DNA from: Candidatus Omnitrophota bacterium
GTDB lineage: Bacteria; Omnitrophota; Gorgyraeia; Gygaellales; Profunditerraquicolaceae
NCBI GenBank assembly: GCA_043807505.1
Contig: JAZDFW010000038.1
Location: 1 to 59,914, forward strand
Direction: 5' to 3'
DNA: 59,914 bases
Position 1 is the first letter of the stretch, and each line of letters starts with the position of its first letter. Under the pieces are notes generated by a model. The model searched no databases, was not told the DNA's origin, and saw only the letters and a list, made by a program, of their open reading frames with translations. Below, piece by piece: positions 3,915 through 58,369 of the stretch. The position numbers were made by a program, and so were the translations under genes.

Positions 3915-4415
3915 TTAAATTTTTAATTCCCCGTATTTTTTTATGTAATCAACTACGCCGCCCTCCTGCAATAACTTTTGCATAAATTCAGGCAGCGGAT
4001 TAATCTTTACTTCAGTATTTTTAGTTAAATTATTAACTTGCCCTTTATCAAAATCAATACATAGGAAATCGTTCCCGCTAATCTTATCCGTATCTAATTC
4101 AATTAAAGGCAGGCCGATATTAAAGGCATTACGATAAAATATTCTTGCAAAAGATTTGGCAATTACGCCAATGATACCCGCTTCTTTAATCACTAATGGA
4201 GCTTGTTCCCTTGAGGAACCCATACCGAAATTACTGCCAGCTACAATTATGGATTTTCCCGGCACTATCTTAGCGGGAAAACTTGGATCAATATCTTCCA
4301 TGATGTGTTTTGCTAATTCTTTCATGTCAGTAATGGCAAATTTATACCTTCCTGAAATAATAAAATCAGTGTTTATATTATCGCCTAATTTTATAGCCTC
4401 CCCTTCAATTTTCAT
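3915..4415 (-). CDS. aconitase-family small subunit (LeuD/HacB type)
   Basis: 166 aa with the [14 protein letters not shown] swivel-domain motif. Substrate (isopropylmalate, homoaconitate or aconitate) is not resolvable by eye. Confidence 0.75.
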
Positions 4416-4457
4416 GTTTGGCCATTATCAGTTACCACTTACAACTAAACTCTCTGG

Positions 4458-5504
4458 TTATAGCTGTTTAAACTCGTCCATATTCTTGACTTTAGACATT
4501 GCAGCGTCCATGGTAATTAACCCTTGCTGAAATAAATCCTTCAGGCATTTATCCATTGTCTTCATGCCATACTGACTGCCGGTCTGAATCAAGGTCGGTA
4601 TCTGCTCAATCTCCTGTTCACGGATAAGATTTCTTATGCCGGCTGTAGCAATCATTACCTCCGTTGCAAGCACACGGCCCGTGCCTGAGGTCCTAGGAAG
4701 CAATAATTGCGAAATTACTCCCTGAAGGCAATCCGCAAGCTGAAGTTTTACCTGTTGCTGCTGGTGAGGCGGGAATACATCGATAATTCTTTGTACTGTC
4801 TGAGGCGCATCCGGAGTATGCAAAGTTGCCAAAACCAAGTGGCCTGTTTCAGCGGCCGTAAGAGTAGTTGAAATAGTTTCTAAATCGCGCATTTCGCCTA
4901 CAACAATAACATTCGGATCCTGGCGCAAAGTATGTTTCAATGCCTCTGCGAAAGAATGAGTATCGGCATAAACTTCTCTTTGCTTTACAATACTCTTTTT
5001 ATTCACATGAATAAATTCTATAGGATCTTCAATACAAACCATCACGCATTCTTTCTCGCTATTGATAAGATCAATTATTGCCGCTAATGTTGTGGTCTTA
5101 CCGACTCCTGTAGGGCCTGTGACTAAAACTAAACCATTGGGCCTGCGAGCAAGATCAAAAACTATAGGAGGTAAACCTAAATCCTGAATAGTCGGTATAA
5201 CTAAAGGTACACGCCTAAAGGCTGCTTCCACAGAACCTTTCTGTAAATGAATGTTAACCCTAAATCTATCCATGCTAGGAAGCGCCAGAGAAAAATCTAA
5301 TTCTAACTCCCGTTCGAATTTTTCTTTTTGCGGATTGGTCAAAACACTATAGATCATTCTCTTTAGGTCATCTTTGCTTAAAGCGCCCGTTGTAGTGCGG
5401 TAGATGTTACCATCAATACGCAAAATCGGCGGTTCTTTTTCGGTAAGATGCAAGTCTGAAGCCTTTTTTTCAATGCATAACAACAGTAACTCTTTTATCT
5501 CCAT
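4458..5504 (-). CDS. pilT: type IV pilus retraction ATPase PilT (348 aa from MEIKELLL)
   Basis: Walker A GPTGVGKTT, and GHLVLATLHT PilT/PilU signature. Start reassigned to ATG 5504-5502, preceded by AGGAGGGGG. The 56-aa upstream extension in the ORF track reads through a repeat element. Confidence 0.85.
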   Translation of the reverse strand: MEIKELLLLCIEKKASDLHLTEKEPPILRIDGNIYRTTTGALSKDDLKRMIYSVLTNPQKEKFERELELDFSLALPSMDRFRVNIHLQKGSVEAAFRRVPLVIPTIQDLGLPPIVFDLARRPNGLVLVTGPTGVGKTTTLAAIIDLINSEKECVMVCIEDPIEFIHVNKKSIVKQREVYADTHSFAEALKHTLRQDPNVIVVGEMRDLETISTTLTAAETGHLVLATLHTPDAPQTVQRIIDVFPPHQQQQVKLQLADCLQGVISQLLLPRTSGTGRVLATEVMIATAGIRNLIREQEIEQIPTLIQTGSQYGMKTMDKCLKDLFQQGLITMDAAMSKVKNMDEFKQL

Positions 5505-5530
5505 AACAGTCCCCCTCCTAAAAAAAATTA

Positions 5531-5635
5531 TAACCCCAAATTTTGCCTGCCCGCCTATGGCGGGTGAAGCAAAATTTGCCCCGAAGGGGTTGCGCAACAA
5601 AATCCGACGAGGATTTTGTTGGTTTCGCAAGGTAA
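5531..5635 (+). repeat. TAA-bounded nested-hairpin element, left-type module (unit A1)
   Basis: TAA-CCCCAAATTTTGC[CCCGCCtatGGCGGG]GCAAAATTTG-CCCCgaaGGGG-...CAACAAAATCCgacgaGGATTTTGTTG...GCAAGG-TAA. Same module order as the copy after hisA (49184-49273, opposite strand). Confidence 0.7.
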
Positions 5636-5798
5636 TCCCGGGTTTTACACACACTATTTTGTGCAGTTGCAAAATTTGGGATACCCCGCAAAGCCGGCCA
5701 AATTCTCGTCGAATTTGACCGTGCGGCCCCTCGCTATACCTAAAGGTAGGCTACGCACTCGCTCGGGGCGGATTTTTCTAACGCAAAATCCGGGATAA
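5633..5798 (+). repeat. TAA-bounded nested-hairpin element, right-type module (unit A2), MITE-like
   Basis: TAA-TCCCGGGTTTTAC...GCAAAATCCGGGA-TAA with imperfect terminal inverted repeats. By hand alignment, 63/67 and 37/40 positions are identical to the inverted copy at 35181-35316. Carries a 23-nt internal insertion relative to that copy. Confidence 0.8.
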
Positions 5799-7046
5799 AT
5801 ATTTACGTGGATCCGTAATCTTACCGGTAATTGCGGAAGCCGTAACCGTTGCAGGCGATGCTAAATAAATAAATGCCTCTGGGTTTCCCATGCGGCCTTT
5901 AAAATTCCTATTAGCAGAAGAAATAACAATTTCCCCATCCGCGGGAACCCCGTTATGTGTACCGACGCATGGCCCGCAGCCAGGTGTCAAAACTACAGCG
6001 CCTGAGCTAACAAACACGCCAATAATCCCTAACTTTAAAGCTTCCTGAAGTATTTCCCGCGAACTCGGAGCAATGATAAACTTTACTCCCTTAGCAACTT
6101 TTCTGGATTTTAGAATCGATGCGGCTATTTTCAAATCATGGATTCTACCATTAGTACAGCTACCTAGGTAAGCCTCGTTGATTTTTATGTTTTTTAATTC
6201 CCCTACAGGCACAGCGCTATCTACATTATGCGGACAGCTTACTTGAGGAACTAACCTAGAAATATCATACTCCAAAATTTTTGAATATAAAGCATTTTTA
6301 TCGGCAATAACCGGATTTATTTTTCTCTTACTTTTGACGCGCGGGCTTAGCCAGAAAAGAGTTTTTTCATCTACCGGCATAAAACCTGCCTTTGCCCCCA
6401 TTTCAACCACCATATTAGATATAGTAAAACGCCCATCCATATCCAGCTTATCTATTACCGGGCCAGAAAACTCAATTGCCTTATAAGTGGCGCCGTCTGC
6501 GCCAATTTTAGTAATTATATAGAGGATAATATCTTTGGCAAAAATTCCTTTGGGGATTTTCCCTGTAATTATTATTTTAATCGTCTCAGGAACCTTTAAC
6601 CAGTTCGACCCTGTGGCAAGTGAGACCGCTAAGTCAGTCGAACCTACTCCCGTAGAAAAAGCGCCCAGCGCCCCATATGTGCAAGTATGCGAATCCGCGC
6701 CAAAAACCAGGTCCCCGGGAAGTATCCGGCCGGATTCAGGGATTACTTGATGGCAAACGCCGCAACCAATATCATAAAACATAGTCTGATATTGCGAGTA
6801 AAAATCGCGCATTTTTTTATGTACGCGCGAAACACCCTCACTAGGAGAAGGCGCGCTATGGTCTATGACCATACAAAATTTAGTTTTTAACTTTTTTGTA
6901 CCAAGCTCTTTTATTCTGTCGATAATAATTGAAGAGGTACCATCTTGCCCCAAGGCAAAATCAATTCTACACAAAGCAAAATCGCCGGCTTTTAAATCAC
7001 GGCCGGCATGTTTGCTTAATATTTTTTCAGCAATTGTCTTCCACAT
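5778..7046 (-). CDS. aconitase-family large subunit (LeuC/HacA type, 422 aa)
   Basis: GADSHTCTYGALGAF, LGSCTNGR and PGCGPCVG Fe-S/active-site motifs. The last 5 codons plus the TAG stop lie inside repeat unit A2. Confidence 0.8.
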   Translation of the reverse strand: MWKTIAEKILSKHAGRDLKAGDFALCRIDFALGQDGTSSIIIDRIKELGTKKLKTKFCMVIDHSAPSPSEGVSRVHKKMRDFYSQYQTMFYDIGCGVCHQVIPESGRILPGDLVFGADSHTCTYGALGAFSTGVGSTDLAVSLATGSNWLKVPETIKIIITGKIPKGIFAKDIILYIITKIGADGATYKAIEFSGPVIDKLDMDGRFTISNMVVEMGAKAGFMPVDEKTLFWLSPRVKSKRKINPVIADKNALYSKILEYDISRLVPQVSCPHNVDSAVPVGELKNIKINEAYLGSCTNGRIHDLKIAASILKSRKVAKGVKFIIAPSSREILQEALKLGIIGVFVSSGAVVLTPGCGPCVGTHNGVPADGEIVISSANRNFKGRMGNPEAFIYLASPATVTASAITGKITDPRKYLSRILR

Positions 7047-8243: not shown

Positions 8244-8270
8244 GAGAAGAAAACATTGAAAAATTTGGGT

Positions 8271-8828
8271 TTAAAGAGGCCCTCTTTCCTTCCTAAAGAT
8301 ATTCTTTAAGCCTCCCAAAAATTTCTTGGGCGGCTTCTTAACAATTGGCGGCTGCTCTTGCTGAACAGCTGTTTGGGTTTTATGCTTTTGTACCTCACTA
8401 ACCGTCTCAGGCTGATTAGTTTCTATTGGGTGTACAGCTTTTTCTTTTTTAACCTTTTTTATTTCCCTTTTTTTAATTTCAGTTAACTCCAGAATAACCA
8501 TTTCCGCGTTGTCACCGCGTCTTTTACCAAGATTCAAGATTCTGGTGTAACCGCCTATTCTTTTTGTAAAACGCGGGGCTAGCTCGGCAAACAAAGCGCT
8601 CACCAGGCGATGGTCACCAAGTATTCTATAAGCTTCTCTTTTTGCTGCCAGCGTATTATCCTTACCTAAAGTGATAAGTTTTTCCACTAAAGGCTTAACC
8701 GCTGCGGCCCTTGCCTTAGTAGTCTTTATGCTCTGATGCAAAAGTACACTCATGGCAAGGCTCTTTAAAGTTGCTTTGCGCCAAGTGCTAAACCGGTTCA
8801 ACTGATGCCTTAATTTCTTATGTCTCAT
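8271..8828 (-). CDS. rplQ: 50S ribosomal protein L17 with about 60-aa basic/Pro-Gln-rich C-terminal tail
   Basis: MRHKKLRHQLNRFSTWRKA... bL17 N-terminus. Last gene of the alpha operon, after rpoA. Confidence 0.9.
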   Translation of the reverse strand: MRHKKLRHQLNRFSTWRKATLKSLAMSVLLHQSIKTTKARAAAVKPLVEKLITLGKDNTLAAKREAYRILGDHRLVSALFAELAPRFTKRIGGYTRILNLGKRRGDNAEMVILELTEIKKREIKKVKKEKAVHPIETNQPETVSEVQKHKTQTAVQQEQPPIVKKPPKKFLGGLKNIFRKERGPL

Positions 8829-35180: not shown

Positions 35181-35316
35181 TTATCCCGGATTTTTCGATA
35201 GAAAAATCCGCCTCGAGCGAAGCGAGAGGCCGCTCGGTCAAATTCGACGAGAATTTGACCGGCTTAGCGGGGTATCCCAAATTTTGCCTGTCGAAGGCGT
35301 GCAAAATTTGGGATTA
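35181..35316 (-). repeat. TAA-bounded nested-hairpin element (unit B), inverted copy of unit A2
   Basis: On the minus strand: TAA(=rplL stop)-TCCCAAATTTTGC-acgccttcgacag-GCAAAATTTGGGATACCCCGCTAAGCCGGTCAAATTCtcgtcGAATTTGACC...CGGATTTTTctatcgAAAAATCCGGGA-TAA. Terminal inverted repeats are TCCCAAATTTTGC / TCCCGGATTTTTCG. Confidence 0.8.
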
Positions 35317-57152: not shown

Positions 57153-58175
57153 TTAACCCAGCGTGATTTTCTTTCTGATTTCTTTTTCTAAATCTTCCAG
57201 TGATTTCGGCTTTTCTTTTAATAATTTTATCGCTGCTTCCCTGCCTTGGCCGAGCTTCTCGCCTTTATAAGAAAGCCAAGTCCCGGATTTTTCAATTATG
57301 CCTTGAGCAACAGCAGTATCCACCATATTATTAACCCTGGCAATACCTTCGTTATGTAAAATTTCAAACTCTGCCTCTTTAAAAGGAGGCGCCACCTTAT
57401 TTTTTACGACCCTTGCCCGCACTCTATTACCAATCACCTCGTCGCCAGATTTTAAAGTTTGAATTTTTCTTAAATCAAGCCTAACCGAAGAATAAAATTT
57501 AAGCGCCCTGCCACCGGTAGTAGTTTCAGGGCTGCCAAACATCACACCGATTTTTTCTCTCAACTGGTTAATAAAAATCATGCAGGTGCGGGATTTGCTA
57601 ATCGCTCCGGTTAATTTACGCAATGCCTGTGACATAAGGCGTGCCTGCAGCCCCATGTGCGAATCTCCCATTTCGCCTTCGATTTCAGCGCGCGGGGTAA
57701 GGGCTGCTACGGAATCAATTACAACTAAATCTACGGCATTTGAACGTATGAGTGTCTCGGCAATCTCTAATGCTTGTTCACCGGTATCAGGCTGTGAAAT
57801 CAAAAGGTCATCTAGATTTACTCCGATAATCTTGGCATAAGTAGAATCAAAAGCGTGTTCCGCATCAATAAATGCCGCAACCCCGTTTTTTTTCTGAATT
57901 TCTTTAATCACGCTTAAAGTAAGGGTTGTCTTTCCTGATGCTTCAGGGCCGAATATTTCGATAATCCTGCCGCGGGGGAGGCCGCCGACGCCGAGTGCCA
58001 CATCTAATCCAATTGCACCTGTAGGTATTGCGTCAACATCCGCTTTTGCTTGGCCGCCAAGCTTCATAATTGAGCCTTTACCAAACTGTTTTTCTATCTG
58101 GGCAAGTGCTAATTCTAACGCTTTATGACGATTAGATAAATCTACCGCTTCATCTTTTTTCTTTTCTGTAACCAT
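57153..58175 (-). CDS. recA: recombinase RecA
   Basis: GPEASGKTT Walker A and [22 protein letters not shown]. Confidence 0.97.
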
Positions 58176-58319: not shown

Positions 58320-58369
58320 AAGAAAAGGGGACGTTTCTCTTTTCCAAAAGAGAAACGTCCCCTTTTCTT
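58320..58369. terminator. 24-bp perfect inverted repeat (bidirectional intrinsic-terminator-like hairpin) downstream of hicA
   Basis: AAGAAAAGGGGACGTTTCTCTTTT-cc-AAAAGAGAAACGTCCCCTTTTCTT. Flanked by GTTTTT on the + strand and UUACACUUUCU on the minus strand. Confidence 0.6.

Follow-up and report, generated by a model that had tools for sequence, protein, structure and literature searches.

A probable non-autonomous DNA transposon of an Omnitrophota lineage at the leuC-pilT junction, and its dispersed copies

The leuC-pilT junction and its alleles

The window analysed here, the whole stretch of 59,914 nucleotides from an Omnitrophota genome, carries on its minus strand a leuC-like gene and a pilT-like gene that lie 273 bp apart (5505-5777), and the locus raises the question of what this spacer is and how it came to separate the two genes. 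The upstream ORF (5778-7046) belongs to the aconitase-family large subunits, is assigned by its homologues to the 3-isopropylmalate dehydratase LeuC and ends in ...DPRKYLSRILR*, and the pilT-like ORF starts with the ATG at 5504. A preliminary description of the locus had proposed that a transposable element, non-autonomous and flanked by a 3-bp target duplication, was inserted here, and its coordinates for the genes, the gap and the flanking TAA triplets were all verified on the sequence. The spacer had also been called GC-rich against an AT-rich background; an enrichment is present but only modest (0.50-0.52 vs 0.40), the GC fraction being 0.498 in the gap and 0.519 in the element, compared to 0.399 in the window and about 0.42 in the two flanking genes.

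By repeat search and multi-copy alignment we delimited within the gap a 262-bp full-length composite element (copy 1; 5534-5795, plus strand), with orthologous filled alleles in L033 and L034, and with high confidence we regard this segment as a MITE, a DNA transposon of the non-autonomous kind, belonging to an Omnitrophota lineage. On its left stands a TAA (5531-5533, plus strand; TTA on the coding strand) that is single in the empty sites of the relatives L031 and L032, and on its right a second TAA (5796-5798, plus strand), which read as TTA on the minus strand is the Leu417 codon of LeuC. Comparison with the empty sites identified the original leuC stop codon TAA at 5528-5530 (minus strand), now parted from its ORF by the element. 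The Shine-Dalgarno sequence AGGAGG of pilT (5514-5519, minus strand), present in the empty sites too, was kept downstream of the insertion, so that pilT retains its ribosome binding site and is now preceded by a highly structured segment of 262 nt.

Excision in silico had predicted a tight joint between the leuC stop and the pilT ribosome binding site, and a search for this empty site found it exactly in two relatives, as CGTAAATATCTA TAA TTTTTTAGGAGG..ATG in L032 and as CGTAAATATTTA TAA TTTTTTTTAGGAGG..ATG in L031. In both, the junction reads ...CGTAAATAT(C/T)TA TAA TTTTTT(TT)AGGAGG...ATG with 20 nt between the leuC stop and the pilT ATG, in line with the earlier estimate that pilT was shifted by 265 bp. 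The insertion does lie at the junction of the leuC stop and the pilT ribosome binding site as described, but the duplicated triplet is the last sense codon TTA (Leu417) and not the stop.

The five codons said to have been added to LeuC were likewise recovered in the protein comparison, where the element-derived SRILR* (5778-5795, minus strand; five codons and a stop) separates two length classes. The homologues P0001 (99% identical) and P0002 (96%) have 422 aa and end in SRILR, P0003-P0008 have 417 aa, and of the 120 homologues listed nearly all are 415-419 aa long and end in RKYL or similar. P0003, encoded by the empty locus L032 (L031 encodes P0006), is 100% identical to the filled-site protein P0002 over 417 aa and ends at RKYL, the point at which P0002 continues with SRILR. 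Annotated LeuC proteins of 422 aa therefore bear a tail derived from the element.

Together with the window, four relatives record four allelic states of this one locus among genomes that are 91-99% identical, and recent transposition in an uncultured phylum is well documented here. The site is empty in L031 (about 91% identity to the window) and in L032 (97% and 94%); it holds the full element in the window, the full element with a nested 63-bp insertion in L033 (98.7% and 96.5%), and an element cut to 92 bp by internal deletion in L034 (99.3%). Identity between the empty L032 and the filled L033 is 99.95% on the leuC side but 97.6% on the pilT side, and L033 is nearer to the empty L032 than to the filled window. 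The distribution of empty and filled alleles thus does not follow a simple tree, and recombination, precise loss or repeated insertion is needed to account for it; the drop in identity between L032 and L033 is suggestive of a recombination breakpoint at the element or close to it. An apparent disruption of pilT in L033 proved to be a run of N in the scaffold and not a pseudogene.

The gene order at this locus is itself odd, in that a gene for a pilT-like ATPase (T2SSE, PF00437) stands between leuC and leuD-leuB. The order leuC-pilT-leuD-leuB (window 3915-7046; L031 5001-8951; L034 4036-8082) is kept in the relatives of about 91% and about 99% identity, with the element present or absent.

Dispersed copies and the TNA target duplication

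The window holds a second copy, a short internally deleted form of 130 bp (35184-35313, minus strand) between rplL and rpoB, which emerged in the self-search of the window as a repeat of 5669-5798 at 35181-35287 in two blocks of 94% and 92.5% identity. Its upstream target duplication is the TAA stop codon of rplL (35314-35316, minus strand) and its downstream duplication a further TAA (35181-35183, minus strand). The corresponding empty site of L035, ...GAATTAAAA TAA TCAGAAGG..., has flanks 100% and 99.87% identical to those of the window and lacks exactly 35184-35316 minus one TAA, showing that the rplL stop codon was the target and was regenerated by the duplication. The insertion enlarged the rplL-rpoB spacer, which in E. 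coli contains an attenuator, by 133 bp.

A scan of genome and metagenome collections with an exact 19-mer word brought to light about 20 more copies, located in MAGs of Omnitrophota type and in metagenome contigs. The copies counted are two in the window, three in two MAGs (one in the Omnitrophota MAG L002 and two in L005, a MAG labelled Planctomycetia) and about 17 in metagenome contigs, 17 of the 25 matching contigs carrying real copies. The remaining eight metagenome loci, as well as three of the five genome loci with the exact word, were chance matches in coding sequence. The copies sit between unrelated housekeeping genes and occur in both orientations relative to them. No copy was found in viral contigs, where all 38 matches to the right-end 16-mer were due to chance, and the annotated plasmids and phages had no similarity to the MITE. 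Inside the window, a 16-mer resembling the right end at 57281 lies within a recA-like ORF and was likewise discarded as a chance match. Our literature search returned no paper linking Omnitrophota with MITEs; within the literature searched the family is previously undescribed, its kind, the bacterial MITEs, being already known.

Two partial matches were observed besides these copies. On the contig of L002 a second, truncated copy (L002:90-221, minus strand) lies directly 3' of a TAATAA stop and comprises the left arm with a diverged H3 hairpin and only the start of the central hairpin (hairpins are described below). Directly 3' of the rplQ stop codon the window reads TAA ACCCAAATTTTTC (8258-8273, minus strand), which is identical to L013 across its left flank and left terminus; in L031, the relative of 91% identity, rplQ is followed by another spacer, of 23 nt. 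A deletion may have left a solo terminus here, or the match may be due to chance.

At 20 independent insertion sites that we delimited, the flanking triplets were TAA/TAA (12 sites), TTA/TTA (6), TGA/TGA (1) and TAA/TAG (1). They are identical on both sides in 19 of the 20 and share the middle base in all 20 (binomial P ~1.7e-6 from the observed base frequencies). Inverted termini would pair TAA with TTA, which is not seen, and the triplets are therefore duplicated target and not part of the element. This settles the question, raised with the preliminary description, of whether a multi-copy comparison would assign the triplets to the element or to the target, as they are direct repeats that co-vary between loci. 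On these sequences the target duplication is a 3-bp TNA, so that the proposed duplication of TAA holds as a duplication but TAA is only one variant of it. With dispersed copies, co-varying direct flanking triplets and empty sites all in hand, the earlier proposal of a transposable element that is non-autonomous and duplicates 3 bp of its target is upheld. In four of about 20 copies the duplication is the stop codon of a neighbouring gene and in four more it lies no more than 6 nt from a stop, a proximity that would fit a TNA target combined with selection against harmful insertions.

Architecture of the element and the nested 63-bp insertion

Copy 1 folds into seven hairpins on the plus strand, three in a left arm (H1 5537-5578, H2 5579-5589, H3 5590-5630), a central one (H4 5636-5681) and three in a right arm (H5 5685-5726, H6 5726-5769, H7 5770-5792). 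H1 and H7, H2 and H6, and H3 and H5 are inverted counterparts; the left arm is an inverted and diverged version of the right arm around H4, and the element as a whole is therefore a long imperfect palindrome. Its 13-bp terminal inverted repeats are of the type TCCCRRATTTTKC, giving the bounding pattern TNA-TCCCRRATTTTKC...GRAAAATYYGGGA-TNA. In copy 1 the left repeat is CCCCAAATTTTGC (5534-5546, plus strand; family consensus TCCCAAATTTTGC) and the right repeat GCAAAATCCGGGA (5783-5795, plus strand; family consensus GAAAAATCCGGGA). The consensus left end matches the reverse complement of the right, TCCCGGATTTTTC, at 10 of 13 positions, and both ends are kept across copies. The terminal motif occurs three more times inside the MITE, five times in all.

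The preliminary description had divided the spacer into two tandem units, A1 (5534-5632) and A2 (5636-5795), each bounded by TAA, and A2 does have the imperfect terminal inverted repeats attributed to it (TCCCGGGTTTTAC vs reverse complement TCCCGGATTTTGC, 11/13). That the two units are successive independent insertions gains some credit from these repeats, which are perfect (13/13) in L028, from the TAA on both sides of A2 in the window, and from an A2-only element with its own TTA/TTA flanks in L024. Against this, the same A1+A2 arrangement recurs at no fewer than 12 (at least 12) unrelated loci from different samples, no A1-only copy with a flanking duplication was seen among the copies, and the empty leuC-pilT sites lack A1 and A2 together. 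Moreover, the TAA at the joint of the two units (5633-5635, plus strand), replaced in other copies by GGTAATCCC or GGTATCC, is TAA or GTA whatever the outer flanks are, these being TTA in L023, L005a, L009a and L026 and TGA in L014, with TAA inside both L023 and L014. The internal triplet is therefore part of the element and not a target duplication at these loci, and we consider two separate insertions very improbable. Judged from the aligned sequences, the conserved mobile unit is the whole composite bounded by 5534-5546 and 5783-5795. Since short A2-like elements stand alone elsewhere (L024), the idea of two units may nevertheless describe the origin of the composite.

The copies range from 77 to 326 bp, within the span of about 50-800 bp expected of prokaryotic MITEs, and have no transposase gene and no coding capacity. 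A direct repeat GCAAAATTTG is present at 5569-5578 and, with a spacing of 100 nt, at 5669-5678 (both plus strand), and removal of the segment between its two copies yields the architecture of short forms such as window copy 2 and L016; larger internal deletions are found in L021 and L034. In the 229-nt family consensus one frame is open from end to end (75 codons), and as a result insertions can extend ORFs instead of truncating them. A protein search with this frame returned only three short spurious ORFs, with no Pfam domain and no transposase, and the frame is probably fortuitous.

We also observed small GC-rich tip hairpins, (C)TCGCCCGC-NNN(N)-GCGGGCAGG, that sit in hairpin loops, the loop occupied varying from copy to copy: they are found in the H1 loop of the window (5547-5568), in H4 of L002, L006 and L020, in H7 of L006 and L026, and in H6 of L013, L016 and L009a. 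Either a module of about 22 nt moves between loops, or the tip hairpins have repeatedly been lost from them.

Some MITE copies contain a second mobile element of 63 bp, CCCTGGTCAATCTGAAAGATTGCCCAGGACTAGTCCTGATGAAATTCTACGAATTTCTCAGGG, found at L033:5407-5469, L013:3838-3900 and L020:5966-6028, with a half copy at L023:1876-1907. It forms two hairpins as DNA (z -6.6), and copies from different samples are 98-100% identical. It was found only inside MITE copies, always at TACCYYG^CRAA and without target duplication, and two unoccupied target motifs lie in the window (between 5627/5628 and 5688/5689). The presence of the 63-bp element in L033 and its absence from the orthologous window copy indicate that it moved recently. 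In its two hairpins, fixed target and lack of a duplication it behaves like a REPIN, an IS200/605-derived or an IS110-type element. No copy of it was found in viral contigs, and a diverged relative was observed in L014 at a different site of the MITE copy there. If the two elements form a two-level system, the target motif TACCYYG^CRAA would exist nowhere but in the MITE, and the 63-bp element would have another mobile element as its habitat. Another palindrome, near-perfect and 50 bp long (AAGAAAAGGGGACGTTTCTCTTTTCC/AAAAGAGAAACGTCCCCTTTTCTT, 58320-58369), stands in the spacer upstream of the recA-like ORF (57153-58175); it looks like a bidirectional terminator and is unrelated to the MITE.

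Movement, folding and comparison with known systems

For the MITE itself the sequences show insertion at TNA with duplication of 3 bp, the target at this locus being the final sense codon of leuC, directly ahead of the stop. The element would move by cut-and-paste or copy-in through a DDE transposase acting in trans. This enzyme would bind to the terminal repeats, perhaps also to the three internal occurrences of the motif, and would cut TNA with a 3-nt stagger. The short forms would arise from frequent internal deletions driven by direct and inverted repeats within the element. There is about an even chance that the transposase belongs to the IS5 / PIF-Harbinger superfamily, to which the TNA duplication is the one feature that points. 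IS5-family ends typically start with GG, GA or GAG; those of the MITE begin with TCCC and do not match them. A TNA/TWA target duplication is a hallmark of PIF/Harbinger elements (PMC4482050).

An autonomous partner, i.e., an ORF-bearing element with the same termini, was found neither in the window nor in the collected loci, and no plausible long-range pair of termini was found in any of these loci. A Pfam search of 50 ORFs flanking the copies returned housekeeping functions only and no transposase among the 25 of 108 families listed. It is conceivable, although we think it unlikely, that there is no conventional IS partner and that the ends define an undescribed Omnitrophota transposase family with five hairpin-embedded copies of a 13-nt motif, the MITE and the 63-bp element forming a two-level parasitic system.

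The region folds far better than expected by chance, with z-scores of -7.2 (RNA) and -7.3 (DNA), a level that not one of 200 shuffles reached. RNAalifold predicted from 12 full-length copies 72 pairs in 11 helices, with 95.4% of cells paired, and compensatory double changes were found at 11 pairs, compared to 4.9 +/- 1.4 after shuffling of the columns and 0-4 when the partners were slid, indicating that the hairpins are actively maintained. These properties bring to mind a single-strand hairpin element moved by a Y1/HUH transposase, such as an IS200/IS605-derived palindrome or a RAYT-moved REPIN, for both MITE ends are hairpins, the body folds strongly as single-stranded DNA (z -7.3) and its stems are kept by compensatory changes. 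Such an origin is contradicted by a 3-bp duplication whose variable middle base matches at all 20 sites, and by the single triplet of the empty sites; IS200/IS605 and REPIN insertions are not known to leave a duplication. A fixed extended left-flank motif, as expected of this group, is absent as well, and we give a Y1/HUH origin very little credence, marginally less than two separate insertions.

Least probable of all is a host function, as a structured RNA or as a regulatory signal such as a terminator, attenuator or small RNA, that would have kept the sequence conserved. The predicted structure, the compensatory changes and the stop-proximal position of copies just 3' of gene ends would be congenial to it, but it is at odds with presence and absence between flanks that are 99.9-100% identical, with the occurrence of copies in both orientations relative to transcription and with the searches for RNA and regulatory signals. 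At the gathering score, Rfam 15 returned only tRNAs located elsewhere in the window, and at E<=10 the region matched only miRNA hairpin models, at 18-25 bits against cut-offs of 57-99. A promoter scan of the region found no promoter-like site, and a terminator scan gave a single weak candidate, which does not lie on the strand of the genes but on the opposite one. Departures of the G-U and A-C types are roughly balanced (a tally from pair types and not a statistical test), and this balance, the two orientations and the lack of an Rfam match favour a palindrome at the DNA level over a strand-specific RNA. Individual MITE copies may have been co-opted secondarily by the host. A self-cleaving ribozyme was considered, by inspection only, for the loop CCGAYGAGG and the CUGAUGA of the nested element, which resemble a hammerhead core, and was rejected: CCGAYGAGG has C at the required U4, and neither motif has GAAA after stem II.

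The MITE is a real but ordinary kind of mobile DNA and brings no new biological principle. It can alter the C-terminus of a core enzyme and place a structured spacer in tight operons (leuC-pilT-leuD-leuB and rplL-rpoB) with the host apparently remaining viable. The family provides a strain-level marker for these Omnitrophota, and in their MAGs it causes contig breaks and gives rise to spurious ORFs. Most unusual are its modular construction from hairpins and the site-specific element of 63 bp that is nested in some copies.

Small size, lack of coding capacity, terminal inverted repeats, a target duplication and dispersed copies with empty sites are all found in this family, as in bacterial MITEs, which measure 100-300 bp, carry terminal inverted repeats and hairpins, are intergenic and strain-polymorphic, and can alter transcripts or extend ORFs (PMC10969869). 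Correia elements of Neisseria and RUP elements of Streptococcus pneumoniae resemble the window element in size, hairpins and location near gene ends. Both duplicate TA (IS630-type). The Omnitrophota MITE differs in duplicating TNA and in its foldback body of seven hairpins, with the terminal motif present five times; the variable middle base (TAA, TTA, TGA) and the whole triplet being single in empty sites exclude a TA duplication of the IS630 type.

Among bacterial insertion sequences, the IS1031 group of the IS5 family makes 3-bp TNA duplications (in the ISfinder classification) and consists of autonomous elements of 850-950 bp with termini starting with GAG; the element described here has no ORF and its termini are dissimilar. 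PIF/Harbinger termini are of the GG... type, unlike TCCCRRATTTTKC. With Tourist-type MITEs and PIF-Harbinger the family shares a 3-bp TWA duplication (TNA in some related groups; PMC4482050). Further common features are small derivatives that encode no protein, terminal inverted repeats of short length, and targets that tend to be AT-rich. Those elements are related to the bacterial IS5 family but are themselves eukaryotic, and homology of the MITE to them would be putative.

REPINs, or REP doublets, and IS200/IS605 palindromes have in common with the MITE the modular inverted hairpins and the compensatory upkeep of stems; the main MITE makes a target duplication and they do not. Finally, the Rickettsia palindromic elements (RPE) are likewise palindromic mobile elements that change proteins while the host gene apparently remains functional. 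RPEs insert in frame inside ORFs, whereas the MITE at the leuC-pilT junction touches only the last codon and the stop of leuC and leaves a tail of five residues.
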